Below the pieces are notes generated by a model that searched no databases, was not told where the DNA came from, and saw nothing but the letters and a program-made list of their open reading frames with translations. Source: Isurus oxyrinchus (lineage: Eukaryota). Taken from it: 64,000 nt of DNA. This document shows, piece by piece, positions 3,701 through 55,998 of the stretch; the stretch's first letter is position 1; every line of letters starts with the position of its first letter. The DNA is taken from the NCBI GenBank assembly GCA_026770705.1, contig JANJGN010000023.1:5766001-5830000 (forward strand), written 5' to 3'. The translations under genes were made by a program, and so were the position numbers.

Positions 3701-6700
3701 ATTGGAGGACCGCTTTTTTAACGAGATGTTGCGAGTTTGATTTGCTCGCAGCGAATTACAGACGTACAGCATTATTAGCAAGACTTTAAACCTCTCTGTC
3801 AAAATTTTTAAATTGCAGTTGCAAGTGATTCCTCAACAATTCTTGATGTCGATCTCTTTCTTATTTCAACCTCCTTTAGCAATATCTCTGTGATTCGTTT
3901 CATCTCAATGTCTATCAAAGCTGTAGTGTTGGATTCAGTTTACCGAGAAAGGCTAATATCTTTTTTTAAAGAATTAAGAAATGCCTTCTTTGAGAAATAA
4001 AGAAAATGTATATTGTTTGTACCAAAGGCTTCACGACATCTTTTGTAATTCCATCTCTTTGCTAGTGCATCGAATTAGCATTGATACCCTGACGCCGTCT
4101 TCAGGGGGCATTGATGTCTGAGATACCACATGAGGCCCACCTGCCCTACTGAATAAGGGGTAAGACTGCCATGGCTCTAATCACAGAGTAGAGTTCAGTA
4201 TTTTTCTATGCCCCCCTTAGAAATCTTCTTCAGTACCCTGTTATCCCAAGGCTCCAATATAAACCAGATGTGAAGTCCCTTTGGGTCATCCTGTTAAAAT
4301 AATTCGAACATAGAAATGCAAGGGATCAGAATAATTTAAGGGGAAAATCTAGACAAAGGATCAAAGTCTATATGTATGACAAACTTGAAAACAAAGATAG
4401 GTGATGAATGAAGGTGAGATAAATGAAGAAGAAGTTACAACGTGGTTGCTAAAGGCCAGTAGATTATAAGAGGAAGGGAAGATCGAGAAAGAGCTCTACA
4501 GTTTTGAGGCCCTGGTAATGAATGGGTTAAAGAGCCGATGAGATTGTTAGAAAAATAGTGAGAAAGGCGAAATGCTGCATTGCTAAAGTTGGTGTCTTGT
4601 CGAAAATCTGTTGCAAAGCATTATTTTCAGGCAAAAGCATCTCGCACTTCAGTTGCCATAGCGACAGTGGGCTAGCAGTGGTTATCCATGTTCTAAGGTC
4701 TGATGGGATAGCTTATGTGCAAAGGTATACTTACCATAGTTAGTACTTCCCACTATATACAATGGGAGATGAAGTGATTTCCAAAAAAAGAACATTTCAA
4801 AAACGAGAAACCATGTGGTGTGTTGCAGGCTATAATGTTTGAGCCACCATCAATAGACGGTTCAATATAGATAGTTTATAGTAGTCTTTCACTCTTGGGC
4901 ATGATTTGTAGATTTCTGTGTAAACAACAGGCAGCCTCTTTAAAGCGCTATTCACTATATCCCAAGGCTTTTAAAGGTCTAATTTAGCGGCTAGTAATAT
5001 ACAAATCCAGTACCTGACATTTGTCATTCTGACTTATGTAATCGTTTTATTATTGACATTTAGTGTTTAATTGTTAAATTTATTACAGTATTTTTTTCTT
5101 AAATAATATTTAAGTTTTATTTCAGCCATCTGTTTATTGACTTCTCAGTTTTTAAGCCAGAGTACATGAAGAAATATGTCTGAATGATTGATTTTAAATT
5201 TATGAAATTGATCAGAAATTGACAAGTAGGAGGAGAAAAAAGGGATACACTATGTCTTTAAGGAAGGTCGGATTGAATGGTTAGGTCCCATTTATTAAGG
5301 CTGTTCTGTGGGCGTAGAATTGATTTGTAATTGTCACTGGCATGTTCCCTGGACGTGAAGCAAGTTTTACTGGTCATTATGCTATGTAAAGAGGCGCTCG
5401 TTAGAGATTTATATTGATACACGTCAAGGTTTGCACACGTAAGTTGAAGGAGTTTCTACTCAATTAAACTGCCATGCATTTATATTGGAATAAAGCAGAG
5501 CACATAACTCTATGACAAGGTTAAATCTTAGAATTTCTTAGAATGCAGTCTCCGCCCTCAGACTGCATTAAACACATGAACAGAATTCCTTGATTCAAGG
5601 ACGCCAATTTTGCAATTTGTTCTTAGGAACACTTAATAGGAAATGGAGCTATCTCTCGTCCTCACTGTTAACATGCGTCTATCTGCCTTCACCATTGTGT
5701 CTGTCTCTGCCTTTTTCTGCTTATTTCCATCTCTGCATATTTCCTATCTCTGCAGTTGCCCCGCACGTCCTGGTCTCAAACTTTCTTTCTCACTTTTTGT
5801 GCCCTTTTTGGTGTTATTTTTAAACCATTTATTCATTCTTTGTGTTTTTCGTTTTCTCTGTCCATGTCCTCTGTGTTTACTGTTCCTCACGATTCTTCGA
5901 TTTAGATCATTAAAAATGCGAAGAATTTTAAAGATACAGCACTAGCGTTGCCAAACGGAACATTTTCTTGTGTGATTTGCTTTTTTTTTGCATTGAATAT
6001 TATATCGAAAACTCATCGATTAACAAGACTTATGTGCAGTCTGTGCTGCAAGTAGTTTTGAGCAGGAGGCCTAGTTATTCCAATAGCGACAGTACTTAAA
6101 AGATGAAGCAAGGAACAATAAATGAAAAGATGAACGAAAGAAACCAGAGACAAAGGGGGACGGGGCGATAAGTTAAGAAATGATTCGATTTTGTAAGTGT
6201 TTCAAGGCATCTTAAAATCATTACGAAACAAAACTTGAGATTTTAAAACACAAATGAGCAGAGAACAAAAAGGTACAGATAAAAATACTGAAGAATAATA
6301 ATTAGCAAACAGTGAGAGTGTTTTGTGTCTTGCGCCACGGCGCCATTTTGAGGCTGGTGAGGCGGACCTGGTGATCCTGATACTTGCAGCATTTTCTGTG
6401 GATCATTTCCGAAGGCCCTACCAAATTTCTGCCTTTCTTGGGAAACACCCGTGACTAGGCAAATGCGTAATATGATTTATTTTTTTATGTCACTGCGATT
6501 GATTTCTCAAGATGACCCCCCTCATTCATAAAGCAGCTTGATGTATGAGTTTCAGCAAAAAAAAATTACATCTTGTAAATAAACCTCCCTTGGCAGAGCT
6601 TTGGAGGGGGTGGGGCGGAAAGTGGAGCACAATTGCGAACAAAAAATGAACTGATGATCGATGTTACTTATTTTCTGGCGAGTTGCGCGAAGCTTTCTTG

Positions 6701-8695: not shown

Positions 8696-9411
8696 CTACT
8701 GATAATTAAGGTGCTGCAAGTCTATTGTGCAGAGAGCGCTGGTGAAAAAATCAAAACTGTCCTCGGGGATATCCACAGGGCTGTCGATGGAATCCTGCAA
8801 GCTGGGAGATAATCCATCGGAGAACGGCAGATAGGAATCCGAAGAAAACATGTTTAAATCTGGCAGGGAAACCAAATCCAGGGCCTCCGAACTGAGAGTG
8901 TCCAGACCAGAGCTACAATTTTGACCTGCTGTAAACCCGTTTTCAACACTGGCCGTCACATAGAAGGGACTCTTAGCTTTTCCATCGCTGCCGCACACAG
9001 TCAGATCCTGCAGGTTCTGGAGTTCTTTGCTAAGTGTGTTTTGGCTTTGCTTTTTTGCTTGCTCGGCGCAGTTTTTATTTTCTAAATAAGTTCCTGATGC
9101 TTCGACAGGTTGGCTGTAAGGCGATGACTCCTCGGCTTTGTCCTCTGGAAGCGAGCTGTTAGGGAAACTAGCTTCCCCGTCTTGGTTTTCTTTATACTGT
9201 GCTTGCCTCTTATGCTTCATGCGTCGGTTCTGGAACCAGACTTTAACTTGCCTCTCAGTCAGGTCGAGTAGGGCCGCGATTTCCACTCTGCGTGGCCTGC
9301 ACAGGTATTTGTTGAAGTGAAACTCTTTCTCTAGTTCCAAGAGCTGCGTGTTTGTGTAGGCTGTCCTTAATCTGCGGGAGCTGCTGCTGTTATCCTGTTC
9401 ACCCTGGCCTT
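8696..9411 (-). CDS. hoxb2: Hox-B2 exon 2 (homeodomain)
   Basis: Homeodomain [59 protein letters not shown] (PG2). Acceptor ttgttAG at 9412-9413, stop at 8696. Confidence 0.95.
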
Positions 9412-10029
9412 CTAACAAGAAAAGGGCAGAAAGAGAGAAAGAAAGAAAGACCGTGAGGAGGAGTGAAAGTAAATGTTTAACACGCACATTGAAAAGAAAA
9501 CTGCAATAGCTTCTGTTGGGCAGAAGCCACTCTTTCACAAATTAGGTTGAAATTAACTTTGTAAATGTTTCTTTCTTGTAACCGGTCAATAAGAATCTTT
9601 GCCCTTTAAATAAGTATATGAAAATTGACAAAGTCGTACAGCAAAACACATTCTTGCCCTTTCTCAAGTTGTTGCAGCTGATGAGTTTGACCAACATGGC
9701 CGCCAGAATGCAAATATTAGAATCTACAATGTATCGAAACATTTTGACAACATAAATCGCATATTAAAACAACATTAAATAAAATATTCCAATAAATCAG
9801 CATTTTAGAGCCAGGCACTGGATCCATCAGGCAATTATAAATGCATTTCGTAAATCAAACAGCAGTAAAATCCCAGATTACTCCCGTGCTTTATAAGACG
9901 TTGTCATCTACGATCTAATTGGTAGAGATACCGTACATTAAAGTTTGAGTTTTGTAAATTTACGGATTTTGATCTAAAACAAAAGGCTTGATATAAACGA
10001 TGCATAGAAAGTCTCGGCTTTGGGCAGAC

Positions 10030-10390
10030 CTGTCGGAGACTCCGCTGCTTGAGAGGACCCAGGGACCGGAGCTGATAATGACAAAGGTGTCTCGTTTTTT
10101 TTCGACGACTTTTTCTCTTTCATCCATGGGAACTCGGCCGCGGCAGCAGATGGGAACGAGCCATTTGGAGGCCGCTTTTCGCGACTTGGCCGCGGCTGGT
10201 TGCTGCTGGGATTCAGGCTCGGGATGGTCTGCTCAAAAGGAGGAGGAATTAGTGTCGAGTGTGAAAGCGTCGAGTTCTTGATTGATGAACTTTGAAATGT
10301 ATCAGCGACAGCAGGGAAGGACGTCAGGCACTCGGCGAGCGAAGGCTGGCTGTTAATAAAACCAATCTCTCGCTCCAATTCGAAATTCAT
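10030..10390 (-). CDS. hoxb2: Hox-B2 exon 1
   Basis: [28 protein letters not shown]...EFPWMKEKK. Donor ACAG|GTCTGC after 10030. 361+716 nt gives 358 aa. Confidence 0.94.
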
Positions 10391-11450
10391 GGCCTTCTTA
10401 ATCCCGAATGGAGAAAGTTATGAATATTGCCGGTCGAGAAAAATAATATTTTCAGGCTTTAATTCTGTATCTCTGATATTACAAGGCGTATGGGGACCGA
10501 CTCTATTAAACTGAGGACTAGATTGAAATTGGACCAAATTCGCTGTCACATGATTGGCGTTGCCCAATAGCAATTTGTTGTCTATGAAAAGAAATCATTA
10601 TCTCTGCAATTGATCCAAAAAAGTGAAGAAAAAATTCCACTTTATTTTTACTGTCAGAATTTTAAATTTACCTCCAGATTTGACCAACTCTTCTCGTGTT
10701 TTTTTCGTTATTTTTAAGAAGGCTGAATGTCGATTTTAAAAAAAATTCTGCTTATATCAAAGTATTTTGCAATTCAAGTGAAGACGATTTGCACCTAAAA
10801 TCTGGCGGCTTGAGTAATTAACAAGGTACCTCATTAATCTTCAAAGTTTTGACAAGAGGGCCAGTAACAAAATAGAACTTTCACAAGATCAGCCAGGCAG
10901 TTGCAATTTGCCTGTAGGAAAGTTCCAAACCCTTTAAATGCCCGTATCATTGGGCACAATTCACAAAATGTGCTTTTTCCAATTACCGAACGGATATAAA
11001 TGCTATTACAGTAGCTTTTCAAAGCAGAGAAGAGGTTTCTGAAACCAGGTAAGTATTGGATTTTAATTTGAGGAAGGCTTAAAATAGTGAGAAAACTATT
11101 GAGTAACCATTTTAGCCTATTTGATCTATTTATCCAGGAAAATAATGCTGCAACATGTTTCTATCTATCTGTTTATGTATCTATTCATTCATTCATCTAT
11201 CCCTCTATCTATCCAACCTTTATAGACAGAGTTTTCTTGTTGAGGGGTTGATTTAAAATTATTTTCATCCAAAAACTTGTTTAAAACTACGAAAGTTTAT
11301 CGAAAACTCATTTAAAATTTACTGCTTCATCAAAAACTTGTGACTGCGTGAAACGGAGCCATTAAAAAAAAGTTATTTAAAGACTAGCATGAGAGTTAGA
11401 ACAGAAATCTTTTTTAAACGCTGAACCCAAGGAGGGACTGAAGGCGGCCA

Positions 11451-20208: not shown

Positions 20209-20225
20209 TGAACTCTTCTTGAACC
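20209..20225 (-). promoter_or_regulatory. DR5 retinoic acid response element of Hox3
   Basis: GGTTCA-agaag-AGTTCA, a perfect DR5, next to a Pbx/Hox site TGATTTATGACC (20242-20253). Confidence 0.9.
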
Positions 20226-34225: not shown

Positions 34226-36565
34226 ACATTTTCAGAACCTCTCTGCGTACAAATAATGCCTGTGAACTTTAGTTGTATAGCATGCATTCAGAGCCTTTGG
34301 CAACAGTCTGGCAGAGGGTGTAGGGCTGGCTGGCCTGTTATCTGTGTCTATGAATAGAGAAAATTGAGCAGCGATTGCCGAGATTCAATGAATAATTCTT
34401 ATATTATTAACTAAAGTAATTACTCCTCAAAACACTTCAGAATTATATACCTTAACGAAAATGTTACATTTGGAAAGGCTGCATTTCACATCGTCTCAGT
34501 TTCGTGGGACCTCCGGGGGGCGGGGGTTGGGGGGGGGGAGGTGGGGGTTGGGGGGAGAACACAAAACACGTATACATTGGTTAGACAGGATTTTCTCATA
34601 TAAGCGACAGATTGTAAATCTTTCTGTTGTCTCCAAAGGCAAAACGTGATTTCAGAAAATCAAACTTTATTCCTGTTTCTTTTGTAGCAATTGAATATGT
34701 GAAATCTCATCATGCTGCAAAACACACTACAAACAACCATCAAAAAAGGGCACATTGTATCGTGTTCAGATCAATGATGTTTTGCAGGTTGCATTTGAAA
34801 TGAATAATTTTGAAGGGTGGGAATGGGGTAGGGTGGGATTACCATATCGTTCATTATAACTTCAAAATGCAGTTTGGTAACATTTTTGTTAAATTACAGG
34901 TCTAAGGCAAAATACGTGCATCAGTGAACTAAACTCTTGAACCAGTGAACATTTCTCCCAACATTGTGTAGAATATTGCGCTGTGTATTGATATGGACTC
35001 CGGTTAGCTTTTCTTTCGAAATTTGCTGCATTTTCAGATTCTAGATTGCATATGTAATGTGTTATATGAAAGAAAATTAAAATTAATACGGAGCTTCATC
35101 TGACAAAAGAGGCCATTTGTCTTCTTGATTATCTATTTGCTTGTCAAAGCTTGAACCATTACACCCTCCAATCCCTTTCCAATACCCAAACACACATGCA
35201 CAAAGAGAAAAAAATGCCAAGAGGTATGGTATAAATGATAGAAAAGGATTTAACTTCACAAGATTAAGGATTGTGCAAGAAAAAGGGATATAGTAACGAT
35301 CCTAAACAATCAAGGAATAACAGATAACTATAGTGAATTAACAAGTCTTCACAAAAGAGTGTTTTCCAAACTTATTACTCCAATGTATTATTGTGCAATA
35401 CATTTATATTCACAAACAGGTGTAAAAGCCTCTAACAATGTAGAATAAGTATTACATTTGTTTTGAGGTGTACCCCTTTTGGCAATTTTTCCACCAAGCC
35501 AATGTCCTTTGTTATCACTCTGGCCAACTCACACAGATGGATGGATGAGTTTAGAAAAATCTGCAGTCATGTTACCAGATCATATTGCTTCGAGAATTTG
35601 ATCGGCAGAGTAGGTATAAATAAACAAAGGAAAAGATACACCTTGAAAAAAATTTATTTCGGTTATTACTATGTACACGTATTTTGGTCTGGATGAGAGT
35701 CAATACATACAGAACAATGCAAGGACATAGACTGCTAACGAAAATACAAACTCCTGTGGGCCCGAACGAAGTAGCTGCTAAACTTCATAGTTTGGAATGT
35801 CATAAAGAGTGATAAGGAAATGAAAACAGTTCATCTACCTAACCTTCCACTTCTTTCGGCTATTATACAATCTCCTAATACTAAGGCCAGAAGCAAGTAT
35901 TGTATCGTGGCTGTACAAGTCACATGCAACATTTTCATAACCACTTTAAATAACTTTGTTGACATAATTTATTCCTACATATGATTTTTACACGTTTGTT
36001 TTTAAAGTCCAACTACATACATTTTTATTGGCACCGAAAGTAATATATTTGGGATCAAAACGTCTGAGGAAATGGAGTACATGTCAGTGTAATATTCCAA
36101 AGAAAATACCCAAAATGTTTCTTTTTGTAAACCCCATTGGAAAATGACTCCGAGCTTAAAACCACAAGGGCCATCTTGCCGAACTGATTCAACATTCTTG
36201 TTGTGGGTTTGTTTTTGTGTGAATAAAAGACAGTTTGTCATCCCAGGTTGACGAAACGGAGCCTCATTTATTAAAGTGTTCGTTTGCTGTCGAGGTAATC
36301 GTAGGCATAGAGTTCATCCTTTGTACCACCAAGTAAACATGACAAATGGGGAGACTTTGGCGTGATTAAAGATGAAACGAGGATTCATCTTTGCCAATCT
36401 CTTCTGAAAACTGCAATCTACAATATTACTTATGGGGGAGGGGTGAGAGGAGTGGGCAAAATCGGAGTATTTACAGTTTAGAGTTTGCCATTATAAATAA
36501 ACAGTCTTTCAGTTAAAATCCTATGCTTATGCGCGCGTCTACCAATTTCTCTCCCACAAGAGCAG

Positions 36566-37622: not shown

Positions 37623-37693
37623 GACCTTTAATATCTGAAATGCAAAATAACTCAAAATTTTTTCTAACCCAGCCGTTTTTCCTGTTACCTAAA

Positions 37694-37755
37694 CCCTCCT
37701 ACTTTACTGTCAAGTGAACAAAGTTAGGCGTTCATGTGACACCGGCAGCCAATGG
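37694..37755 (-). promoter_or_regulatory. HoxB4 proximal promoter (NF-Y CCAAT box, USF E-box, conserved PG4 5' block)
   Basis: CCATTGGC (37748-37755), GTCACATGA (37732-37740) and TTTGTTCACTTGACAGTAAAGTAGGAGGG. Confidence 0.75.
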
Positions 37756-39004
37756 TAGGTCCCGTTCGATTCCCGGATAAGGAAATAGAATTGGACGCTG
37801 AATGCTCCCAAGCTTCTCCCCTAAACAATTTTTGATTACAGCATTTAATGTGCCTTTTTTTATTCCTAGAACTTGGCAACTTTGCAAATGGGACCTTTTT
37901 GTTTCAAGCCCGTTAAACAGAATTAACGTCGTCCAAAAGTTTTTGTTATATGCATCAATGGTTTCTTGCCAGTCGATATCACTCCAAAAAAATGAGTCAG
38001 CTTTTCAAAAAACATAAAATACGATCTGATATGTTAGAATCTATCCGCGGCTTGTAAATCTTTCTGTAATCGCAATGCTAACGCCTTTGCAGAGCTTGGG
38101 GAGGAGGAAGGCGTTTTAGCTGGCAAAGATAAATCGGGCTGCTTTGGATCAATAGAAAATTCATCAACTAATTCAGGACACCTAAGTCAACAAATTGCAT
38201 TTAGCAATGCATTACACTGGCGATTTTTACCCAGAATATCTCTTGGTGAAACGATTCCCCTCGAAACATGCCTAGAATACGCACAATTAAAAAAGAGAGA
38301 AATATTTCACAAGTAGCATTCACACGCAAGTCTAAACGAAGTTGCCCATGTTCGATTAAAAGCATGATCCCAAAGTGTGGAAGGAATGTTAATACAGGTT
38401 TGCCTCTTGCCACATTGAATAGCTTTCGTTGACTTTAATTATAAAGGGTGCACTATGCAATAGAGCTACAAAATCCATTTATTTTTGAAGTCGTCATGTT
38501 TGAATTCTCGACCAAATATGACACAAATAGCTGTAAAGTTTTATTTAAAATGATACATATAAAATTGTGAAAAAACCCACAATTAACTGGGTTAAATAAT
38601 TGAAGACGTTCATATACTTTTAATGCATGGTAGACTGTGATTCCATGGGCAGTAAACGACATGCGTGGGGGGTTCGAATTGATTAATTTCTAAGTCATAA
38701 CAAACCCTTTAAAGCTGGCCATTTTAACGGAGCTATGCGCGGGATTATCGAAAAAGGTAACAGTAACATTCCATATTTAAATGACGTAACAAATACAGCA
38801 CCAGAGAGTGCTGAGAGTTGTAGCAACAAGACTGAAAAGGGGGAAAAAGGGCAGCACGTCATTCCAGGCAGCAGTCTGACCCGCAGAATCAGGTAGATGA
38901 ATACTATGTTTCGGTTTTATTTATTTTATATTATCGATTTGTACGAAGAAGATTCTAGGCGTGAACATATTCTTCTGTCTTCCGGGTGAATGTTGTAGCG
39001 TTTG

Positions 39005-39092
39005 TGTCGACTACATACTCCCCTAGATACGAATTTGTGACCACAACTTTGTCAACACAAATTCGGATCTACAGGGTATATATAGAGGACAG
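39005..39092 (-). ncRNA. mir10a: pre-miR-10 (miR-10a type) hairpin
   Basis: Mature 5p UACCCUGUAGAUCCGAAUUUGUG at 39056-39078 and 3p CAAAUUCGUAUCUAGGGGAGUA at 39016-39037. The arms pair and the position between Hox4 and Hox5 is canonical. Confidence 0.97.
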
Positions 39093-41189
39093 ACATATTT
39101 TCAGCATTTTTGTAGCCCAGAGACGTTCAAGAGCATCCAATGTAAATGTGCACGCATTATTGAACCAAGAATACATACGTGTGTGCGTTTTATATGTATC
39201 TGCACAACTTGAGTGAGGATCCCTTTCTCCGGTTTCTTTCAGTGATTTGTAATGCAATTTATGAACCTTCTTTATACATTGAAATGTGAGGCGTACAGTT
39301 TTGCAAATGCAACGAAAGCAATGTCAGTAAATTCTGAACAAAGTATTCTGGAAGAATCCAAACAATCCACTTTCAGGGCCAACTTCGAATCATCGCACAA
39401 GCAAACATCCATGCGTTCATACAAAACAGCTAGATAGGAGGGAGGACAAGTCACACGTGATACTTTCCCAAAAGTTTGTTTCCAGCTGCAACAGAGACAA
39501 ATACATTTTCTTTATATTTAATTTATTCAAGAGCAGTGGAGGAGCCTCCACGCAATGGTTACATAAATCTTACAGCAGACATTGCGAAAATCATGGCATC
39601 CTCCACTCTGATAAATTCATACAAAATAAGGAGTGTTACTGTGATGTACCTGGGTGATTTATCTTTATGTAGCATGCGGCCCAAGTAGTGGGGTTAAAAA
39701 GACCAACTAAAACGACCTTAGTGATTTCCTTCAGGGTTACGCCTATTTTTCTTAAATATGATGGCTGGCATAAATTGCCCACAAAATTATAATTTAAAAA
39801 CTTTGTCAATCTAAATTCATTTACGACGGAGAAACAGAAATACCAAATTGTTTTAACATAAAACTCTTCTATGAATAGGGACCAATGTTGTTTGAAACAT
39901 GCAAACTGCTTCAAAGAACTTTATTTCCGGTAGTAATAAAACATAAAAATGATGCAGAGGCTTCTCTCAGTATACCCTTCGCATGTAAAAAGACTTTATG
40001 GCCTTTAAAAAAAAGCCCTGTTTATAGGTCTAACTTTACGATCATGTTGATCACTGCCATTCAAACCTTCCAAAAAACAGAAGCGGAATTTTATGTAATG
40101 TTACTCTTATTCAATATCCTTGGCCTTTACAGTTGTGCCTTTTAAACATCTTTTCACTATCACCGTAGTTAAAAAGGAAACACAGAGCCTCTTCAAAGGT
40201 GTCTTTTCATAAAAGATAATCCAAGTGCTTTGTTTAACTCGCCGTAATAAAAATGTCGACATTTCGGAAGTTTGGAAGATGAATATATTTACTGTCCCCT
40301 ATCTGTTCTGCATTTCAAAAGAACCTCGCTATAGATTGCTATCCTAACAGAGGATGCAAACATCAGCGGGATGGGGGAGGCCTTTTCCCCCTCCTGTTTG
40401 TAGCTTGCCATAGGGGAAGTGAAACGCAGGCCTCAACCTTACTGTAGCAAAGGACTCGCTACAGCCAATGATAATGATTTTAAAAAGTGAACATGCAAAT
40501 ACTACCATCTTACTAAGCATTGATAACCTAACTGATTTAACGTAACTATCAGCATTTTTTACATATTTAGAAACACGGTGGCATTTAATTATTGCGGTTA
40601 GTTTTGCATTACTGGTAGTTAAATCACATACTCTGATCGTTTTTGCAAAGTTATTTTGTGGTATTCTGTCTTAAGCATACTCATACACACACTTCTCTCG
40701 ACATCGTTCCCAGCCCCTCCATCTATTGGGGTTAGTTCAAGGCTAAACATGTCGCCAAGTTACTCCTACATCCCAGCATAGTTTTCCGATTGCGTTAAAT
40801 CACATTCATAACCTCTCACACACAGAAAAACCCTTTGGTGTTTCTTCCTCTACATTCTCAAATTATACATTACAGAACGCGTCGGTGTGGGCTTTGCAAA
40901 AAAAAATCAAACCGAGAGGCCGAAAATACCAACTTCAACATAAACATATTCGTTCTCCTTTGTCTGTTCTTGCACTGATAACATCTAGTTAGAGCAAAGC
41001 TTTCCAGCAGCCCTCTTTTTTCCCCCATTCGAAATGCCTAGCAGCTTTTTAAGAAGTGGCCGAGAACCGGCCTGGTGAACATTTTGTTTTCTCCCTCAGT
41101 TTTCGTATTAATCTCATACACTGACAGTCTTTGTTAAACACCAAGGCGTGCCGTGCGTCCGAGTACATTTTAATATTTGTTAGACGCTT

Positions 41190-41206
41190 TGACCTGAGTT
41201 TCACCC
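41190..41206 (-). promoter_or_regulatory. Hoxb4 upstream DR5 RARE (B4U)
   Basis: GGGTGA-aactc-AGGTCA upstream of miR-10, matching the PG4 5' RARE pattern RGGTGA-n5-AGGTCA. Confidence 0.85.
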
Positions 41207-44200
41207 CGCTCTTGGACTCTCCCCCTCTACAAGTTCTATAGTATGGATAGGTCTCTCAGTCATATTGAATTTTGCTCAGGTCATTACGTTTGAGAAAAAT
41301 AGCAAGGCAGGAGTTTACCCAAAACAGCATTAAGGCTCTGGAAATTCTCTCAAGCATTGCATGTTCTGTGATTCCATTAACATCAAATATTTATTATAGA
41401 AGTCACAGTTCTAGTCCTCTATTGGCAGATACGTACCCAGATTCCAATTTGAATAACAAAAGTAATTAATAGATCTGTTTTCTTGGGCATGCTTAGTTGC
41501 ATAAATATAAAATGTTATCCTTTTCACAGTTGAATATTTCATGTATTACTACATTGGATAAGCCAAAGAATAACAACAATTGATAAGGCATCAGGCAAAT
41601 AAAAAGTCCCAGCACATTTCACATTCTATATATGTGTGCATGTGTGTGTAACAGCGAATTAATTTAATTTGTTGAAAATGATTGTTTTAACACGTCAGAG
41701 GATTTTCTAATTAAAACTAAGGAGAATACGCCTACTTGACGCAACCCCCTCCAGGCAAATGTCAGCAAATTTCTCGATGAACTTATATTCAAACTTGCTC
41801 AAACTGTATTTCATTTGCTTCTCCATTTTCTTCTAATGCATTTTTCATCTATTGACAGATTAGTGAAACCGTGTCGGTACAATGTTAAATATGGAGACAT
41901 AGATTAAAGAAAAGGTTCAAATATTTTCCAATTCCAACATGTTATTTAACATACAAAGTGGGAATTTTAATTTCATGCGAAGGGTTGGTGAATGTTATTT
42001 TTGAGTGAATGTTTCAGTTAAGATTGAGCAAATTGCGTGTATATTGACACATTCATCGATTGAATCAATTTCTGTTAGCTCGATGTTCTCGGCGCCAATT
42101 ATTGTTTGAATCATATGTTTGTTGCCCATTGCACATAGTAACACAATCATAGTTTACATTAAATGATATAAGCATCTCTATGACTCTGTTACTGCTCCTG
42201 TTGACAATTAATTCCCCTCCCCCTCAAAAAGAACCCTGTAAGTTACAGAAACCACACTGGCTTAAAATAATGAATTTAAGATATTAAAATAAACAAGTAT
42301 CAGAACAGATATTTATATAAAATACATAAAACTTAGGAACAGTCAATTTCTTGAAAGAAAACGAAAAAACGCACGTGATTTCAGGTGCACATGATCTTTT
42401 CGCCATTTCAGAATATAGCTGGCTTGTTTTGCTACCGAATTTCAACCGTTGCAAAACATTTCATATGCAAAAGTAGTGTTTTCTATTCCCTTTATATCAG
42501 GGAGTGGAAAGTAAATATATAATCCCTACATTATAATAGTGACGATACTTCAAAAGTACTCCATTGGTTGTAAACCACTTTGGGGAATCCTGAAGCGTGA
42601 AAGGCCAAAGAAATGCAACATTTTTATATCTATAAAATGCAAGCAAGTTATATAAGACATTAACATAATCTAATCAAGACAAAAAAATCTCTTAAATCCA
42701 ATTCGTTTTCATTTTAGTTACGGCACTTGAAAAGGATAGCTGTACATCTCTGCTGTCTTTGTAAGAATAAGAAAACGTATGCTGTATAATCATTGATATC
42801 ATGCTTACATTATTATTCTATATAAAAGCACTTGCTTCGATGTGGATGCCAAGCAATGCAAAGTGACCTGAATGTAGGCAGCCCTTAATTCTTCCCTCAC
42901 TGTCTATAAATGCATGTTTGGAAATACTTCTGGTAGTTTGCTACACAAAATGTTCATTCAAACATTCAAAATTTAAGAGCTTGTATCTTTACTTTGAACA
43001 GATTTATTGCAAAGCAACTGTAGTGTAAACAGATTTAAAACGTCTTCGGTGCGCAGAACGACCCCAAAGACACTGCCTTGCAGACAGATTTAAATGGCTT
43101 ACTTTGTTTAAATGATCAGACTAGGGCCCATGGTTTACAACTTTGAAAAGTGTTTTGGCTGATATAGGAAGCAACAACTGCGCATTAATGATAACCAAAG
43201 AAGACTGGCATCTAGTTACTTTTGAGGCCAATGGCAAGAAGCTAGATCTATCTTATTGTTTTCTTTACTTTTGTAAAATTTAATCAAAGTTCCCGTAATC
43301 TTCCTGAATGGGCTTCGCGTGATAAATTTTATTCTAAGGGTCTATAAGCGGGTAACTGGGAGAAAAACCTAAAAGCAAATGCACGGAGAAATGAAAGAAG
43401 TTAATATTTCCCTGCTTAAGAATATGAAAAATAATTTTAGAGTCTCGTGTTCCTGTTTTCAGTGACTGACCTTGCTTTATGTGACACTTTAAAGCGTAGC
43501 AATTCGTCAATTAATTCCAAAAACTCTGTCTCTACTTTTTTGACTTCCTTGTCCTATCTTTCCCCATTTACACCTATACATATCAGGACTATATATGTTT
43601 GAAAATATGATAATTGTACATATGAAGTCCTATTTTACACGCTATTTTCACATTGACTTGTATAATGTATACTTGACTCGACCTATCTTATGTCTCTTCT
43701 CCTGATATAACAACAGGCATTTACTATTCATCCTTTCCGTCATGTCACCCATTATAAATAAACCGTTTCTATTTCCATACAACTTGACTCTTTAAATGAT
43801 TTTAAAAACTGATTACATCTGGCGGGAATTATTTCTCTCGTCCATTTGTGTTTTCAAAGTCTCTTATAACCTATACCGCAGCTACTTCCGTCGTGGATCT
43901 GGTGATTTCTATTTATTGTGCAGTGTGTCCTATAAAAGGGATCAATTAATCCTCCCTGTTTTTGCACAGATCGTGTTCAGGATAGTTAGCCTTCCCCCCA
44001 CCCCCACTCCCACCTCTCTCTCTCTCCCTGTCTGTCTCTGTCCGTCTCCCTCGTCTTATTTTACATACTTTTAGATTGTTGTTCATCGTTAAACTCTACT
44101 TCCACTTCCACATCATACCTTGGTATCATTTTCTCATCTGTGCAGATAGCCAAGATCATCCCTTTTACCATTGACATCGAACTGGGTCTATCTAAGCAGA

Positions 44201-47200
44201 CAACACCAAGTCACGCACGACGTAAACTTTTGACCCTCCACTTTTTGACCCCTTAGCTATAATGCTGTACTAACAAGCCCCCATGAACAGTTTCAACATC
44301 GCAATCCTCAGACAGTATTGCTGTACAGTTTTGTTTTTACCCCCACGAGGCTCGATTTTGTTTTAACTTTAGCGCTGCTTCACTTAAGACATATAATTTA
44401 GAAACCGAAAGATTTTATTGAGACACTGGAATTTCTTGAAAGTTGGGTTTGAACTCTTCAAAATTATATTTTTTTCTTACCGGCATTGTTTGAATGAATT
44501 TATATCATTATTCGTCAGGAAAAATGTACAAACTGAAAGGGTGAGTTTTGAAGAGACAAATGACTACAGCACTTAGAAACTGCTGATAGTGCATAAGTAG
44601 AACATTTTGGGGAGATATCAGACAGACTCCTCCGACTCTGTTCTGCCAGATTAACTGCAATGGAAAGGCTGGTAAGCGTTGTGGCAGAAAGGAGACGTAT
44701 AATGACTATGAACTTGGTCTGAAGCGGGCTCTGGTGGCGGATCCGACACGTTACATGTGTAAAATAACTCCCCAGATCCTGTTCGTATTTATTTCAAATT
44801 CTGCTTATAAGTCCGATTTTTATTGCGGCAAAATATCTCAAGTTGTTAGTTGCAAAAGTTTTTTTTTTCGAAACCATTGTCAGTTTTTCTGTTCTTTGCG
44901 TTCCGTGTGACGTTAAGCTGGCAGTAATCGTGTCTTGTTTAATAAAAGCGGAGTACATTTAATATAGAGAAGCAGGTCATCAGAACAATCCCTCAAGAGA
45001 TGAAGCATTAACAAGGGTTTTATATTATCTTTGTCATCAGATTGCTTAATAATTTTGGAATCTTAAATTCAATGCAAAATTAAATTAAACCAAATTCAAT
45101 TCAATTCAATTAAGTCATCGTCTTGTTCTTTAAACGGTGGAGAACGAATACTGGATAAAACAGTTTGAGATATTGGTAGTAGTGTTTTCAAACTAACCGA
45201 GTAAGATTTTCTGTTGCAAAATGTCTCGTTCAATTGCATAGCAAATGTCAGACATCAACCTTTTTTAAATTTAAATCAGGGGTTAAAAAATCTTCAGGGC
45301 CTGTCTGCCATAAAAAAACAAAGCCTTTTGTAGAGTATGAGAATTATTATGTTGCCTGATACCAATTATATTGTGGTTTATAGTTTTTTTCTTTTATTTA
45401 ACACTTTATTAAGTGAAGGAGATGCATCAAAAATAATAGTGCTCTGTAATTTAAGATCTCACCTTATGCCCGTGTTGCATTTAATTAGACTATGATATGT
45501 ATGCTGGCCTCGCTTAGGTCGCACGTTCTGAAACAGGGTGCCGGTTTATGGCCTAAAGTGATCCCAGTTACTAACGGTTGAAACAACGGAGTAGAGTTAA
45601 TGATAACGTGTGAGATATGAATGCTTTTATCTATGTGTCTGCAACTAGATGTTTAATACGACAATATAATCATCTGACACCTTTATGACTCCGTCGCGCG
45701 TTTGTGTGACTGCCTTTTGTTCCCGTTCCCCCTAAATTACAACCTTAACCCAGTCCTCCTATCCATTCAGTGCCCATAAGAGCACCAAATGCATGCCACT
45801 TAAAAACCTTAAAGAAAATACATCACCTTTAGACTGTGCAGTTAACCTGATAGGGATGATTATCGATCCTGTACGTTTCTGTGGAACAGATAATTCTCTT
45901 GTGATAGTATCAGGAGCAAATACATCTGTGTTAGAAGGGGAAAGAAACAACACCACTTTCCCTGAAACTAAATTAGTTGTGTTACAGTTGATTATTGATT
46001 CACACCATAAACGCTGGTGCCCGTGTTGATCTACAAAGAGGGGGAGAGGCCCGGTAACCTTAAATAGATTGGAAATGAGTGGGAATGGTTATCTGTGTTT
46101 TAGAATGAATTATGAAATATTTGCAATGATTTTTCGCCCTAGCAGAGTTAGCTCCAATTGGAAACCAATCAGCATTTTTCTACAATAGGGAACATTCCAG
46201 GCTACATACATATTTGGTGCTATTAAGCATTTTGTTTCTTACACTCAACTGCAACATTCTTGGTCAGGTTTGATTTAGTTTAATTATGTACCAGTATCTA
46301 CCAAGAGACCGTAGATTCTTGTCTATTTCTGTAATTATTTATGCTCTATCAGTTTCTTTCTTACACTAATCATAAACTATTATGCTAAAGTATTTCCTGA
46401 GCATCCTGTCTTTAAATCAGATTGAAGAATTTAAGTGAAGGGCTAAATGTAGGACCCCATCAAAGCTGAAATGAATAGAAGTTGGTTGGTGACGTAGGAA
46501 GTGGATCTGAAAGTGACAGGTTATTTTATTGCGGAGAAAAACATTACAATATTGCAAAGAACAGGTTTATCCCAAACTCAAAACCTTGACCCAGTTTTGT
46601 TGTAATCCTCTCACATGTGAAATACGTATTTAGAAATTGGAAAAAATAATTGCATTAATTGTTTCTATCTCCCATTTTACGACAGAACATTGAAGAATAA
46701 TCATTCAGTTTCACCGAACACTGAATAAAATGAGAAATGAAACGCAAGACCACAATGTACTTCCTCCATCAGGGATGTGTTTTCCTGTTTACCCATTGGA
46801 TTTCCTCAGCTATCAGCGCGGAAAGGCAATAAAAAAGATGACAGAAACACTTCGACATTCTGAGAGAAAAAAACTTTGACTCCTAACATTGATTTAAAAA
46901 GCTCCCTCCCCCGCCCCTCAACTGCACAGCGGAAGCGGCGAGAATTAAAAACTTGACGGATTCGAGGACTGTGTCACAACAATGATTATCAACGGGTGAG
47001 AAACTTGACATTTACTGATGAGAAATGTCAAACTATAATTTTCCTCTTATGTATCTACATTTCTCCTTAGACTAGTTAGTGACTACACAAGTAATCTTTA
47101 CAAAGAACCTCAAAATATGCAGACAATTGTCAGATTATCATGACAGGAAGTCCATTACAGTAAGGGTGATACTCTTGATAAGCACTGTAACATATAGTAA

Positions 47201-50200
47201 GTGCCGTGTATAAATAAAATCTAACTAAATTATAAAACGTTAGTCCATACTTGTTTCGGGTAATTCTTTACTGTAGGATCAAAGGATATCTGTTTGTATT
47301 AAGAATCTCTTTAGCCTAACAAATTGATATAGCACCCATTCCCCTGTCTCTCACTTCAACTTGAAACCCCAAAGGAAACATTTTCGTATAAAAGTCTGTG
47401 CAACGTTCAATTAGTCGTACTTAAGAGTCACATTTCAAAATGATGACATTTATAGAGGCTAAAAGTCTATAATTCAAAACTGACAGCATTGAAAAAGTTA
47501 AAGGCTATAATTTAAAAGTAGTGACTGGGTCTCGCGTATGAATCCCTATTGCGGGAAGTATGGCGCACTTAATAGTTTGAAAATATTTTACTAGTTCATC
47601 AAATTTTACAATTAGCGATGGGTGTAAAAGATGCCTCTATCCACTTTTAGACATTTGTCTTAGGCCGTCTAGTGCCTGTTCCTTTGCTCACCTTGAAGGC
47701 ATTATGAGTTCTAAAAGAGTTCAGTTAGGCCAAGGTTCGGAACCACAGCCTAACTAAAACCTACTGATCCAGAGTTGAAAACAAATTTGCGAGATACCGA
47801 AGGTGAGGCAGTGGGGAAGGTGGGGGCGGGGTGATAGTTTAATCACAAACTATCATTAAGGGTCATTTTGAGATTAGACTCCATGTTAACAAGGCTGCGT
47901 TTAAATAGAGTCCTTTCTTCATTTTAACTTTGCAAAGTCTTACAATACGATTACAAACATATATTTGAATATGCCTTCTTTTAAACAATAAAAACAATGG
48001 CGATCAATTTGACTCTTAATTCAAAAAGGCATGTGGTTATTATTCCTTCGGCATTCAATTAGTGGGGTGGTTAACATTCGGAACACTAATAAGCCAAGGA
48101 AGTGCTTTAAAAATAATATAAAGGTGTCCTTGACTGCACACGGCCTTCCTCAAAAGGCCGATTTCCTTTTTAAACAATATATGTAAATAAACTACAAAAG
48201 ATTATATTAATCCACACGGGACAGTGTTGAACTGCCCGTTTTCCAGCAGAATGATTTTTCCAGGAAATTGCAAAAACGTTGTTAATATTTTGAAAATAAG
48301 ATTAAACTAAGATAGAAACGAAGAAACTGCATTGAGGCTGAGCTACATTTTGTACCTCGACTATTAGCAAGAGTAAAGTTTACATTAACAACTAAAACTA
48401 CGAACATGTTTGAGCATTCCTGGCCCACCTTTGCTCACAGCTGAACCGTTCAAATTCATATTTATTTTAATCTTTGCTCCGAATCAAAGATTAACAAATC
48501 AAGCTCTAGAATCAAAGCAAATTATTGTAATTATATTAAATACATAGAGGAAACGAATTTTCAACCATGCGATATGTATAAAAGAAACTCAATGTCAACA
48601 CAATTAAACATCAAGAACATTTAAATCTACTTAAGTAAAATAATCAGGCGCTAGGAACGAGGCCCATTAATCCCATCCACCAGATCTTACTTTTTTTACA
48701 CTTTGGGCTCGATGCACTGTTTAAAGCATAGAAAAAATATATTCGTAAAAGCTAAAATCTTTGCACTACTGTCAATTTATCATTTTTAAAAGTTTTTATT
48801 TCATTTTGGAAGCTTCCCTGCGTCCTGCTGTCAGGAACCATACGCGCCCTGCTTTATAGTTCGTCGTAACTTACCTTGAGCTGTACAGTTCCATATGATT
48901 TTAACTGTAGTCAGTAAAGATTTTGGAAACTACAGGTCTGGTAAAAGAGTCCTGCTCGATTCCTCTGGAAGACTAGCCACATTATATGCTTACAGTCTCT
49001 TCAAGCCCAGTCAGATAAAGTTCAGCGTCACTAACATTATACAGAATGTGAAATATATTGTACCTTGTCAACTCCCCAGAACCATAAAACTAACTTTAAC
49101 GACCCCACGTGACTTTTGAGAGCCAGTAGGGGTATCTGCCTGCGGTATGGGCGATTTTTACGATCTAACTTTGAGATAAATACCCAATTCATTTGACATC
49201 CCAATGTCATACCGACTTCTTGTATATGTAGTTTGTTATATTCACAAGGGGAGCAGGCACTATGCAGGATAGACCTAACATTTGCTGTGTGACTTATCAA
49301 CTACCGATAAGCACTTGGACGTTCTTTTGGTAAGTTGAGTTTAAACTAAACTAAGGGTTACCTGTTGCACAAAAATGAAGCCAGATTTACAAAAGGAACG
49401 CGTATAGTTTGTCATGTAGACAAACTTGAAACAGTACACCTTGTTACTGTACAAGTCTCTTGGGGCATGCCGCAGAAATCAAGTCCGAGACACCTTTTTT
49501 TTTCAAAAATACAAGACAACAGTGAATAGAAAACAATCTTGTTGAAGTGCTTAACTAGAAGATGGCGGGTTCAGTTAGATCCAGTTGCCAGAAGTCAAAT
49601 CACATAAATACCGCCTTTAAATACAAACGAGCAACTCAGCCGCGTAAGCAAAACAGCAAGGGTTAGGTAAGGTTTAGGGATTAATCTGAACGATTAACTA
49701 ATAGAGCCAGGTAATGTTTCCTTCTAATAATACCTTATAGAAGTAATTACCAGTAATAAAACGAGAAGCAATCAATAGATATTCAGCAAAATTCACAATG
49801 TACGCCGTTAAAGTACATTTATAAAACGCACAGTACATGGAGTTAAGGTATCACAAGACACGTAGCAATATTCAAATATAACACATCTGATAATATTTAT
49901 TGTACTAGATACTAACAATAAGTATTCTCCAGATGCAGTAGAACGCATTGCGCTGGGTAATAAGATGCCAACCTATTTACAGTCAACATATTACACTTCA
50001 GAGATTAGGGGTGGTTATGAGAAACTTTTACTTTATTTCGAATTAAGCTACAAACAAATACAAAAAGCTTGTTGGCAACATACTGTAGGACCTAAACATA
50101 GTTGTCGTTCACTTCCACAGAAAATATGCCATTCATCACTCTGCCCATTACAGACTAGCTATAGGCAACATTATAAACTTTTTTTGTATTATTTACAACC

Positions 50201-50713
50201 ATTATAACTCACTAAATAATCGTGTACAATCATCGCTGATTTCAGAATCTATCCACATGTATTACCAAAGATTAGAATTCTACATGGAATTTCGACATAC
50301 AGACGTTGCTTAAAATCACGGACAGCATTAAGGACAGAAACTTACATGAACGTGGTTATATTTTTGAGGGGTGATAGTGCAAGAGCAAAGATTTTAGCTT
50401 TTTATCAGCGTGTGGGAGGGAAAGAAGATCAAATTGTACAACTTGTGTCAATTATAAATAAGTTATACCATTTACAATCCACAAAAACCATGCTACTTTT
50501 TCAAGAGAGCACCAACAGTTCACTGACACAGACACATGTAAGACAGCAACAAGCATTTAACAGCGAAAGGACAACACAGGTTAAAGGGGGAAAAATGTTA
50601 GCATTACCACAGAAAAGTTTAATTCATCTTTAATATTTAACAACACGCGGAAAAAAAGGTGCCTCGCTGTACAGTACTGGTGCACGGTGTCTGTTATTTT
50701 TACATTTGATTTG

Positions 50714-50964
50714 TTAGGGTTGAAAGGCGCTTGCTCCGGCCGTCATGCTCATGCTTTTCAGCTTGTTGTCCTTTTTCCATTTCATCCGCCGGTTCTGGAA
50801 CCAAATCTTGATCTGCCGTTCTGAGAGACACAGAGCATGGGCAATCTCTATCCTCCGCCGTCGGGTTAGATATCTGTTGAAGTGGAACTCTTTTTCCAAC
50901 TCCAACGTCTGAAAACGAGTATAAGCAGTCCTGGCTCTTTTCCCGTCGGGTCCACCCATACCAT
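50714..50964 (-). CDS. hoxb5: Hox-B5 exon 2 (homeodomain)
   Basis: [70 protein letters not shown]...SAFQP. Acceptor tagcAG at 50965-50966. Confidence 0.96.
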
Positions 50965-51212
50965 CTGCTAATAAATACAGGAAGGTTTTTTTTTTATCCA
51001 TGCTGAATTATCTAACCCCCTTTTAAAATCCATTAAAAAAAATAGAATTTTGCACCATGAGTGTTGGAATATTCCCTTCCCCGGGGCCTCTCTGGACATT
51101 ATGTCAAAATGAAGGTATATTGTCCCAATCTGAATTGCTATTAATTATCATTTTCCTTTTCATTGTCTGACTATGTAACTTGTGTCTTGACGGCTGTGCT
51201 TCTAATTATCTG

Positions 51213-51297
51213 CACACACACACACACACACACACACAGAGACACACACATACACGCACACTTACACCAGATATGAACAGACACACACGCACATACA
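51213..51297 (+). repeat. (CA)n microsatellite in the HoxB5 intron
   Basis: Pure CA repeat at 51213-51238, then degenerate CA repeats. Confidence 0.9.
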
Positions 51298-51732
51298 TGC
51301 CCATACCTTTAAACAAATGTCTGAAATTGCAAGCAGATCCATGGAAAATGGGTCACAGCAACACTGACTGTCTAGGGTTGCTGCACAGTTCCCTTTGTTA
51401 TTATGCTGATCGTGCAGTACAAGTCTTAGCTTTCTATACACTAGGATCATGGATATCATACAATATTTACAATTTATCCGCATTAAATATAATTATTTTA
51501 ATATTTACTGAATTTTGTTGGTCAACTTGCGCATTATCTTTGCATACACGTAATAAAATTGTTGTTTAATGGTTTAAATTAAATTTGCGGAAAAATGTTT
51601 AGTTTAGTTTCTGTAGAGCAAAGAAACATAAATTGTTCATATTTTGTGTCACCTAGGTTGCACAATAGGACGCCATGAATTACCTGACCACAGAGCAATA
51701 TTTAGAGTGATAAACAGAAAATGAAAGTGTAC

Positions 51733-52267
51733 CATGGCCAATGTGCAGTTTTCTCATCCAAGGAAATATTTGTGGCTGCTGTTCTGGTGTTGTTGCTTGT
51801 GTTGGTTCTTGCTGTGCCCTGGGATGGTTGTTGTTGTTGGCTGGAGTGCCCTCTTCGGCATCCGAGGATGCTCCGGCCTCGTCCATTTCTGTAAAATTAC
51901 TTGCTGAACTAGAGGAGGTAGTCGGGTCGGATGGGGAACCCTTGACTCCGTGACTGTCCTTGCCGGAACAAGGAAGGGGTTCTGGAGATGAGAGGGTGCA
52001 GCTCGCTGCTTGCCTGAACCTGGTTTCTGTAGCTGGAGGATAGCTTCTGGACTTTTCTGTATTAACCACTCCAAAGTGGTTAGATGAGGCTGAACGGGTG
52101 ATGCTAAGGTCCATACCATTGTAGTTGTAGCCGTAAGTGCCTGAATGCATGGTGCCTGAATCCCTGTATGGTCCGTTCTCGGAGCTGCTCGTCCCATAAT
52201 TAAGTAACTGATAATCCGGGCCATTTTGATAGCGACCGGAGAATGAGTTTACAAAGTAAGAGCTCAT
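51733..52267 (-). CDS. hoxb5: Hox-B5 exon 1
   Basis: MSSYFVNSFSGRYQNGPDYQLLNYG...YGYNYNGMDLS...QIFPWMRKLH (SFSGRY and YQLLNY are B5/C5-type, not A5). Donor ATG|GTACAC. 535+251 nt gives 261 aa. Confidence 0.95.
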
Positions 52268-52299
52268 TTGGGTTTTTTTGGGTTGATTTGTGGTTGTTA

Positions 52300-52500
52300 G
52301 TCGTTATAACCCAGTCCTGCACGATTTATGATATATTAATGAATTATAGAAATGACTGTACTTCGTTCGCTTCTATGTATGCGGCCAAATATGGGGGGTG
52401 CGAGTCGGAATCACGTGCTTTTGTTGACCAGTCGTAAATTCTCACTGATGACCTCAAGGGGTAATTCATGCTCTATGGTTACAAATAATGACGATCCGAG
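52300..52500 (-). promoter_or_regulatory. Conserved Hox5 promoter/5' UTR block
   Basis: Dense Hox/Pbx-type motifs (TCATAAATCG, TTTACGAC, TAAT cores) and an E-box CACGTG at 52412-52417 directly upstream of the ATG. Confidence 0.6.
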
Positions 52501-52551
52501 AATCGTTACGCCATGTGAATGCAAGGTTCCAAATGGTGGCCAGGTTTGCAG

Positions 52552-52571
52552 AGTGCGCCACCTACTGGGCT
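52552..52571 (-). promoter_or_regulatory. CTCF motif at the Hox5|6 position
   Basis: CCAGTAGGTGGCGC (52555-52568) fits the CTCF core CCASYAGRKGGCRS at every position. Confidence 0.75.
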
Positions 52572-54675
52572 CCGTCTAAATTACACGAATTAAGGTTATT
52601 GCTTATCTATTAACATTGGTGTTATTATGTGAATAATAAAACAACAAAAGTTACCTTTTAGATTTACCTACCTCAAATCAATACCTTCCGGTATTGTATT
52701 ACAGTTTGCTACATATCTTATTTAACTTTTGACAGTGCAGTTGTTTAAAAGCGCTAAAAATCAAAAATGCTGAACGTAAAACGGCTATTCAATTATCTTG
52801 CAATTGAATTGGAAATCACGTTTTATAGCTATACTTGGAGTCGAGCAATTTATTTCGTTTTTTGACCAGATACATTTAAAAACAATTAACTTGCCATCCT
52901 TGACTAGTCAGTTAAATGCACACGTTCATCGACTTACGGTTGGTCCTGTCGATGTGCGCATTAGTATTTGCAAAATGTTATCGTTCCTGTGTGTTTGCGG
53001 GACTGAAATTCGTTCTAAATTGTTTGCGAATAAAGTAGGCTAGATTTTTTTTAAACTTTTGTCTTCAAAATGCACAGGCTCTTTCAAGAGCAGGGAAGGA
53101 CTAAATCTTAGAAAGTTCTAATCTGTACCATGGTGCACTCTATGGGCTGCGCGGATAGCACATTTCTTTCCATTACTATGCTTTGAAAGAGCCTACTTAA
53201 GAAAATAAACGTTTGAACTATCTTGTTCCACTTCCCCCATTCGGTGTTAATATGCTCATTTAAAAATTATCATGCAGTTATCCTGACTTAAATGCTAAAT
53301 GAACAATATTAATTGACATTCCGTAGACATGGATTTTTGTATGCAATACGCATAGCCCCACTATCGTTATACGATTTTTTACCGGATCCGCATAAGTCCT
53401 TTAGTACAACTCACCTCATAGAGGGTTCGGTGAATAATTAGCAGAGCGGCTTCAACATTTTTGGGGGCACAATGTTGTTTTACATTATGTGAGGAAGGCT
53501 TAAAGTTCTAATATGCACTATACCGAATGTGGTGGATTTTTGCGGATGTGCATTGTTATGGCTACAAGCCATTTATGCTCAACATCCCTTTTTTTAAGTG
53601 CTTTAATAAGACGATGGCATGACTGCGGTGTACATTTAGATAGACGTGTGCCGAGAAGGACATTCACTTGATTGTGCAACAGAAAATAAAATAACTGAAA
53701 CCAGAAAAAAACAGTTGTTAAGAGCCGCAATATCCTGCGCTTCCTTTCTGTAATAAACTGTTTGCGAATTTCAAAGATTTGCCTAGCATCATTAGCCAAT
53801 AATGTTTCTATAATCCAGTCTGATTTTTAGATGCGGGCAGTAAGCTGATTACTGGAATGAAATTTAAATTCGAAGGGAAATCATAGAGATAAATCAATTA
53901 CCAGAAATTCAATGAGGACTGTCAACTTTTTGTTTTGTGATAGATTACAATCTAGACTTAGATAAGCTGTGGAATAGCGATATTGAAAATGTAGTTTTTA
54001 TACCATGTATGTCAGTCAGATCATCACTTGGTTTCCATGCATGTTATGATTCTTAAATTGAAAAATACACACCTTTTTTTAAGAAAAACTTTTTATTATT
54101 ATTCCAGATAAGGATGTCTCGGTTTTTAAAATTTATCACGCATGCTACAGTCACATTAATTTAACAAAACACAAATAAAAAAATAACCTCTTACTCAATT
54201 TTTAAGACATTTGCTTTTATTTTCCTCGCTCCGTTACGAAAACAATCAAAATACAATATTTAGACCTCATTGTGTGATTTCCACAAGCACGCACACACAT
54301 TTCCACACACGCACGCGTACATAGATAAAATAAATCAAAAATAGTTGTTCACATTTCACAAAACATACACCATCATTAACTAGAGAGCTGAGACGAACGT
54401 CAAAAAAAAATCACAATATTGCAACAGCTCAATTGAGATGCAGAATTCATGGAGTTCTCCTAGTCTTTTTAAACTATTGACACCAATGTGAAACATTGCC
54501 TGCTTGGCTAGACCAAAGGAATGCATAACTTTATAATAAATCTCACAACAAATACAGAAATGTACAACTCCACTGGTGCGCAACAGCAAACAAAATGTAA
54601 ACTTTAATATTCATTATTCATTTTTTAATTAAAGAACTGCATAGCGTTCCCTTTTCTTTCTGTTTCTTCTTGTTT

Positions 54676-55107
<432 letters not shown>

Positions 55108-55565
55108 TTAAATTACTCAGTTTCATAATAAACTGTTTGATGAGCACCTTCGATCCGAAAACACTAAATAATGATTTCCATTCATGGTATGGTTACATTC
55201 TGTTCGATTAAGGCTTTATAACCGGTGGGCCTGTTGGCTGTACAGTAAAATCTTTATGAGAAGAAAAGTAACAGATCGTGCCTCATATTTAAAGGTCAGC
55301 ATTGCATTTTATATACATATACATATTAATCTCCTGTATCAAACGTCGAGTTTCAATGAATTATTCAGTATCTCAAAATATGCAGCAACTCATAATTTAA
55401 TGTGAAAGGTATTAAAGAAATAACCGAACGTTGAATTTTCTTTTCTAAGAAAGGGGTTTAAGGGTTTAGCTGCTCATCTCTTTCTTGCTAAGTTCATTGT
55501 AAACTTGCATTAAAAAGTTTTTTCCAACAAATATGTAAAACAAAAAGTATAAAGTGTAAACTTAC

Positions 55566-55998
55566 CACCACTGGAGTTCATTCTCTGCATCCAGGGGTAC
55601 ACGGGGAGCGAACTCTTCTGATCATCCGCCTCGCCATATAAAATTCTGTTTTGTGCACTCTCGAATTTGCGTTGTTCGGGGTTATAATGCGTTGGATCTT
55701 CCAGTGAGTGGTACTTGGAACTGTTGGAGGAGGCGCTGCATGAAGGGTCTTTTTCCCGATAAAAACTAGGGGCACCGTAATCACAGGGTGTCCGGTTGCA
55801 CCCGTATGCTCCGTTGGCTTGCTGGTAGTAAGAGGGTGACGGGTAGCTTTTATCCTGCATGCTTGTAGCCCCATATGTGGCCGGGTAGTGTCTTAAAGGG
55901 TCGTAACCGGATGAATATAACGGAATCTGCCCAAGGAATGACTCTTGCCCACTGGCAAGAGTCGCGGGGAAAGTGGAGTTCACAAAATACGAACTCAT
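55566..55998 (-). CDS. hoxb6: Hox-B6 coding exon 1
   Basis: MSSYFVNSTFPATLASGQESFLGQIPLYSSGYDPLRHYP...PVYPWMQRMNS (B6-type). Donor GTG|GTAAGT. 433+260 nt gives 230 aa. Confidence 0.95.

Follow-up and report, generated by a model that had tools for sequence, protein, structure and literature searches.

A predicted CTCF site between HoxB5 and HoxB6 in a shark HoxB cluster

In mouse motor neurons the a5|6 and c5|6 positions are tested boundaries (PMC5238725), as a preliminary description of the present locus had stated. A strong CTCF motif in the corresponding gap of a shark HoxB cluster raises the question of whether it marks a barrier of the same kind and whether such a site would be peculiar to the shark or a feature that jawed vertebrates share.

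The HoxB locus and its genes

The window (the whole stretch of 64,000 nucleotides that was analysed) holds a shark HoxB cluster whose open reading frames represent Hox groups 1-7, all on the minus strand. HoxB2 and HoxB5 were named by protein search, and the other groups were named by gene order and sequence features. Exon 2 of the group 2 gene matched a protein of Cetorhinus maximus at 100% identity, with 85% of the query aligned, and its identities to HoxB2 of Scyliorhinus canicula and Callorhinchus milii were 91% and 73%, respectively. In NCBI records, several orthologues of the HoxB2 gene (8696-10417) from sharks and rays are labelled "Hox-A2-like", an automatic-naming artefact. Exon 1 of HoxB5 shares 98% identity with Hox-B5a of Mustelus asterias and 87% with HoxB5 of C. 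milii. The cluster is that of the basking shark or of a shark closely related to it. The gene next to it we take to be HoxB6 from this adjacency and its N-terminus. The stretch between the two genes measures 2,408 bp. The features that matter here are as follows.

39010-39085, minus strand: mir-10 precursor (Rfam match, 79.8 bits)
50714..52267, minus strand: HoxB5 coding region, two exons (open reading frames; the ATG starts at 52267)
52268..52554, minus strand: HoxB5 5' flank, taken to comprise the proximal promoter and 5' UTR (sequence)
52555..52568, minus strand: predicted CTCF core motif, positions 1-14, the ZF7-ZF3 module (0 mismatches to the consensus and top matrix score)
52580..52585, minus strand: TGTAAT, candidate for part of the ZF9-11 upstream module, at -17 to -12 counted from the first C of the core
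54676..55998, minus strand: HoxB6 coding region, two exons (open reading frames; stop codon 54676-54678)

Other elements were seen elsewhere in the cluster. HOTAIRM1 is a HoxA lncRNA, and a match to its conserved region 2 lies between HoxB1 and HoxB2 (6353-6576, plus strand; 45.1 bits, E 0.007, Rfam); this match may therefore be a paralogous conserved element. Two direct repeats resembling DR5 retinoic-acid elements occur on the minus strand, the first at 41190-41206, in the HoxB4-HoxB5 interval and upstream of mir-10, and the second at 20209-20225, upstream of HoxB3. Mouse HoxB has elements that resemble these repeats.

The CTCF motif and its surroundings

When the window was scanned with a CTCF consensus, CCASYAGRKGGCRS, a single match without mismatches was found, CCAGTAGGTGGCGC, on the minus strand, which is the Hox coding strand; none of 100 shuffled sequences contained such a match. 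It was still the only match in the window at one mismatch or fewer, a level that was reached in 21 of the 100 shuffles. The motif lies in the HoxB5-HoxB6 gap, 288 bp upstream of the HoxB5 ATG and ∼2.1 kb from the HoxB6 stop codon, in agreement with the full-consensus site that the preliminary description had placed about 290 bp upstream of that ATG. With a JASPAR-type count matrix the core ranked first in the window (19.2 bits, p ∼1.9e-7, E ∼0.025 per window), and an equal or better score was obtained in 7 of 200 windows shuffled in 1-kb blocks. On its own, the motif is thus modestly beyond chance for the whole window. Because work in the mouse predicts a site in this gap beforehand, the search can be narrowed to this 2,408-bp interval on the coding strand, for which E falls to ∼5e-4. 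The next-best match, at 34507-34525 (17.4 bits, reached in 17 of 200 shuffles), was rejected as a CTCF site because a run of G begins there and the core has two mismatches, and the remaining matrix matches in the window all had E values above 1. The description of this motif as the only strong CTCF match in the window is fair. Under the usual motif convention the core points toward Hox1, the 3', anterior end of the cluster, as do the tested mouse sites of the a5|6 type.

Using the numbering and the CTCF zinc-finger contacts of PMC10484683, we found that the core fits the described contacts, with CCA at positions 1-3, an accepted T at 9, a preferred G at 11, and CpG at 12-13; it has the 12-15 bp length and the ZF3-7 specificity of a CTCF core. 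Positions 2-3 are CpA, and the CpG at which methylation blocks binding is therefore absent, while a slight gain in affinity is reported for methylation at positions 12-13 (PMC10484683). Given these two features, constitutive CTCF binding would be expected at the predicted site. The upstream-like word TGTAATT noted earlier held up in its register, which is that of ZF9-11, and less well in its letters. The T at -12 and the G at -16 suit contacts by ZF9-11, the C at -10 is absent, and position -15 is a T. Of the six letters of TGTAAT, 4 agree with the upstream module (chance probability 0.036 at one offset and 0.07 at two). A match this good or better accompanied 2 of the 23 window sites of at least 6 bits. 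The word, in register but only partly matched, is at most suggestive of a ZF9-11 module. The downstream GAG triplet for ZF1 is absent, positions 19-21 being TGC.

Six direct and three inverted short repeats were found at 52200-54700, and since none overlaps the CTCF motif, an origin from any of these repeats was ruled out. No structured RNA was detected at the motif, the two Rfam matches in the window both lying elsewhere. When a non-coding frame spanning the site was translated and used in a protein search, 19 matches were returned among 20 candidates, all to unnamed records that may be of human origin, a result with no bearing on the element. Between the motif and the HoxB5 ATG are what we take to be an E-box (52412-52417) and a perfect CArG-type word (52385-52394, one of two perfect such words in the window), both named by motif and regarded as candidate elements only. 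Another group of words, at 49082-49138 and ∼1.6 kb 3' of the HoxB5 stop codon, comprises a CDX-type word, an E-box, and half of a CTCF-like word on the plus strand that scored at chance level (11.3 bits); its place corresponds approximately to that of the HOXB-AS3 promoter. For the HOXB-AS3 antisense RNA, an orthologue in the elephant shark is reported in PMC8330917, a paper that makes no mention of CTCF. An antisense RNA of this type would cross the CTCF motif.

Comparison with mouse HoxB and other Hox 5|6 intervals

The preliminary description had taken HoxB to be poor in internal CTCF sites and a surviving HoxB site to be novel, and the mouse literature supports neither view. The mouse HoxB sites CBS1-10 are numbered from Hoxb1 to Hoxb13 and only CBS5-10 belong to the spacer between b9 and b13 (PMC11573545); the remaining four are on the Hoxb1-b9 side. 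In a second numbering, sites CBS4/5, CBS5/6, and CBS8/9 were named from public CTCF ChIP-seq, and CBS5/6, which lies in the b5|6 interval, contacted a +73 kb CBS in 4C experiments (PMC8007823). Mouse CBS5/6 thus occupies the same cluster and the same intergenic interval as the shark motif, a likeness of interval rather than of alignment, and from position we infer that the two sites descended from the same element. An equally bound mammalian HoxB site had been named in advance as the finding that would remove the novelty; a bound site is present in the mouse, in this very interval, and the likeness to the shark motif may extend to its strength and exact homology. The supplements searched for PMC8007823, PMC10335938, PMC11573545, and PMC5238725 contained no b5|6 coordinates or sequences. 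Because a bound site exists in the same mouse gap, the shark motif is a conserved feature of a kind to be expected, not a relic found in sharks alone.

How strongly b5|6 acts in the mouse is a separate matter. Across the four mouse clusters the CTCF layout is said to be largely maintained (10.1101/2021.08.13.456193). Mouse HoxB has been described as a single TAD (PMC8788451), H3K27ac spans Hoxb1-b9 in gastruloids at 132 h while RAD21 collects at CBS7-8, and the available text that gives the clearest cases of the generic layout names HoxA, HoxC, and HoxD and not HoxB (PMC11573545). Taken together, the single TAD, the Hoxb1-b9 active domain, and the omission of HoxB suggest that the b5|6 barrier in mouse HoxB may be weak or transient.

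The other mouse clusters show what a site in this position can do. Hoxa5|6 and Hoxc5|6 resemble the shark locus in having a CTCF motif between groups 5 and 6 but differ in belonging to other clusters and in having a function established by deletion, whereas shark HoxB5|6 is known from its motif. The a5|6 site is convergent with distal sites, and deletion of a5|6 together with a7|9, or of c5|6, led to a boundary shift or to ectopic Hoxc6 and homeotic changes (PMC5238725). Central CTCF sites of the mouse Hox clusters face the 3' end, gather cohesin that was loaded in the active anterior region, and hold back activation of the genes that follow (PMC10335938, 10.1101/2021.08.13.456193). The CTCF sites in anterior HoxD have a forward orientation (10.1101/2021.08.13.456193). 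HoxD CBS1 and the 3'-facing array resemble the shark motif in facing anteriorly from the border of an anterior domain with few CTCF sites; across shark HoxB1-B4 the matrix scan found no convincing CTCF motif in the window. CBS1 differs in lying between d4 and d8, and its timing role comes from mouse stembryos only (PMC10335938, 10.1101/2021.08.13.456193).

A CTCF map of gnathostome Hox clusters places outward-facing motifs near Hox5 and a Hox5|6 position common to clusters, which its available text does not name, and suggests an origin of that position before the clusters split (PMC5504073). The shark motif matches this map in its outward orientation near Hox5 and in its Hox5|6 position, and the map's dataset, as far as the available text describes it, contains no chondrichthyan ChIP. 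In the same source, the core and upstream CTCF motifs are nearly identical in lamprey, chicken, and human, the elephant shark Hox clusters showed few sites by a motif scan that its authors judged unreliable, and human Hox CTCF sites were not accurately predicted by motif scans alone. Loop-extrusion signatures are reported for the skate (10.64898/2026.10.19.759930). The available parts of PMC3750649, PMC9680502, PMC11957699, and PMC7471279 contain nothing on a B5|6 site. No shark B5|6 CTCF site was reported in the titles and abstract openings that were found; most subscription papers were out of reach, and this result therefore does not amount to absence from print. Hara et al. are said to have mapped CTCF in shark Hox clusters by ChIP-seq in 2018.

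Role and origin of the shark site

The motif has the appearance of a genuine CTCF site, with the position and orientation of a 5|6 site. It is probably a directional cohesin barrier and loop anchor that would separate HoxB1-5 from HoxB6 and beyond, and as such the shark copy of the conserved jawed-vertebrate Hox5|6 CTCF site. The motif, its position, its strand, and the identity of the genes are observed here, and the binding, loop anchoring, and timing are projected from the mouse. CTCF would contact the core through ZF3-7, and ZF9-11 may add weak upstream contacts. Because the motif points toward Hox1, bound CTCF would stall cohesin extruding from the anterior side; the site would serve as an anchor for loops whose other ends are convergent sites of the 3' landscape, and HoxB6 and the genes beyond it would be reached later by the activation that spreads from HoxB1-5. 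With a counterpart in mouse HoxB, no loss in mammals is required.

Other readings of the same motif were weighed against this one. Bound CTCF might mainly bring 3' enhancers to the HoxB5 promoter without insulating HoxB6. The short distance to the HoxB5 ATG and the promoter-type words beside the motif would suit such a tether, as would the single TAD of mouse HoxB (PMC8788451) and the observation that Hox CTCF sites act as insulators, anchors, or both (10.1101/2021.08.13.456193). Deletion of the positional counterparts a5|6 and c5|6, however, de-repressed posterior genes (PMC5238725), and we regard a role confined to tethering as unlikely, although tethering and insulation are not mutually exclusive. 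Less probable still is that the motif is a chance GC-rich word in the promoter flank to which CTCF does not bind. The seven shuffled windows that equalled or exceeded its matrix score favor that view, and scanning many windows would turn up such matches; against it are the low E value for this interval and strand, the correct orientation, the part of an upstream module in register, and the bound site in the same mouse gap (PMC8007823).

A further alternative, about as unlikely as tethering alone or slightly more so, is that the first HoxB barrier has moved, sharks keeping a strong ancestral b5|6 site without b4|5 and mammals having weakened b5|6 and gained or strengthened b4|5 as the first checkpoint. 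Between HoxB4 and HoxB5 of the shark (37623-50713) the matrix scan detected no CTCF motif above chance, the best matches scoring 11.5 and 11.3 bits (E ∼1.8-2.0), whereas CBS4/5 is a named site in the mouse (PMC8007823) and in each of the four mouse clusters the first CBS is said to adjoin the promoter of group 4 (10.1101/2021.08.13.456193). Motif scans, however, are poor predictors of human Hox CTCF sites (PMC5504073), so the missing b4|5 motif is weak evidence. If the barrier did move, one cluster would have changed the place of its first Hox-timer checkpoint in the course of gnathostome evolution, which could account for the behavior of mouse Hoxb1-b9 as one block.

Returning to the conserved 5|6 site as the preferred reading, a pre-duplication origin, which the preliminary description had proposed, is plausible, and the proposal itself was already in print (PMC5504073). 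The motif would gain in importance only if the first HoxB barrier were a different one in shark and mammal. We conclude that the shark HoxB5|6 motif is a real, ordinary, and expected conserved element, one shark data point that is consistent with the presence of a HoxB 5|6 CTCF site at the base of the jawed vertebrates and that fits the published view.
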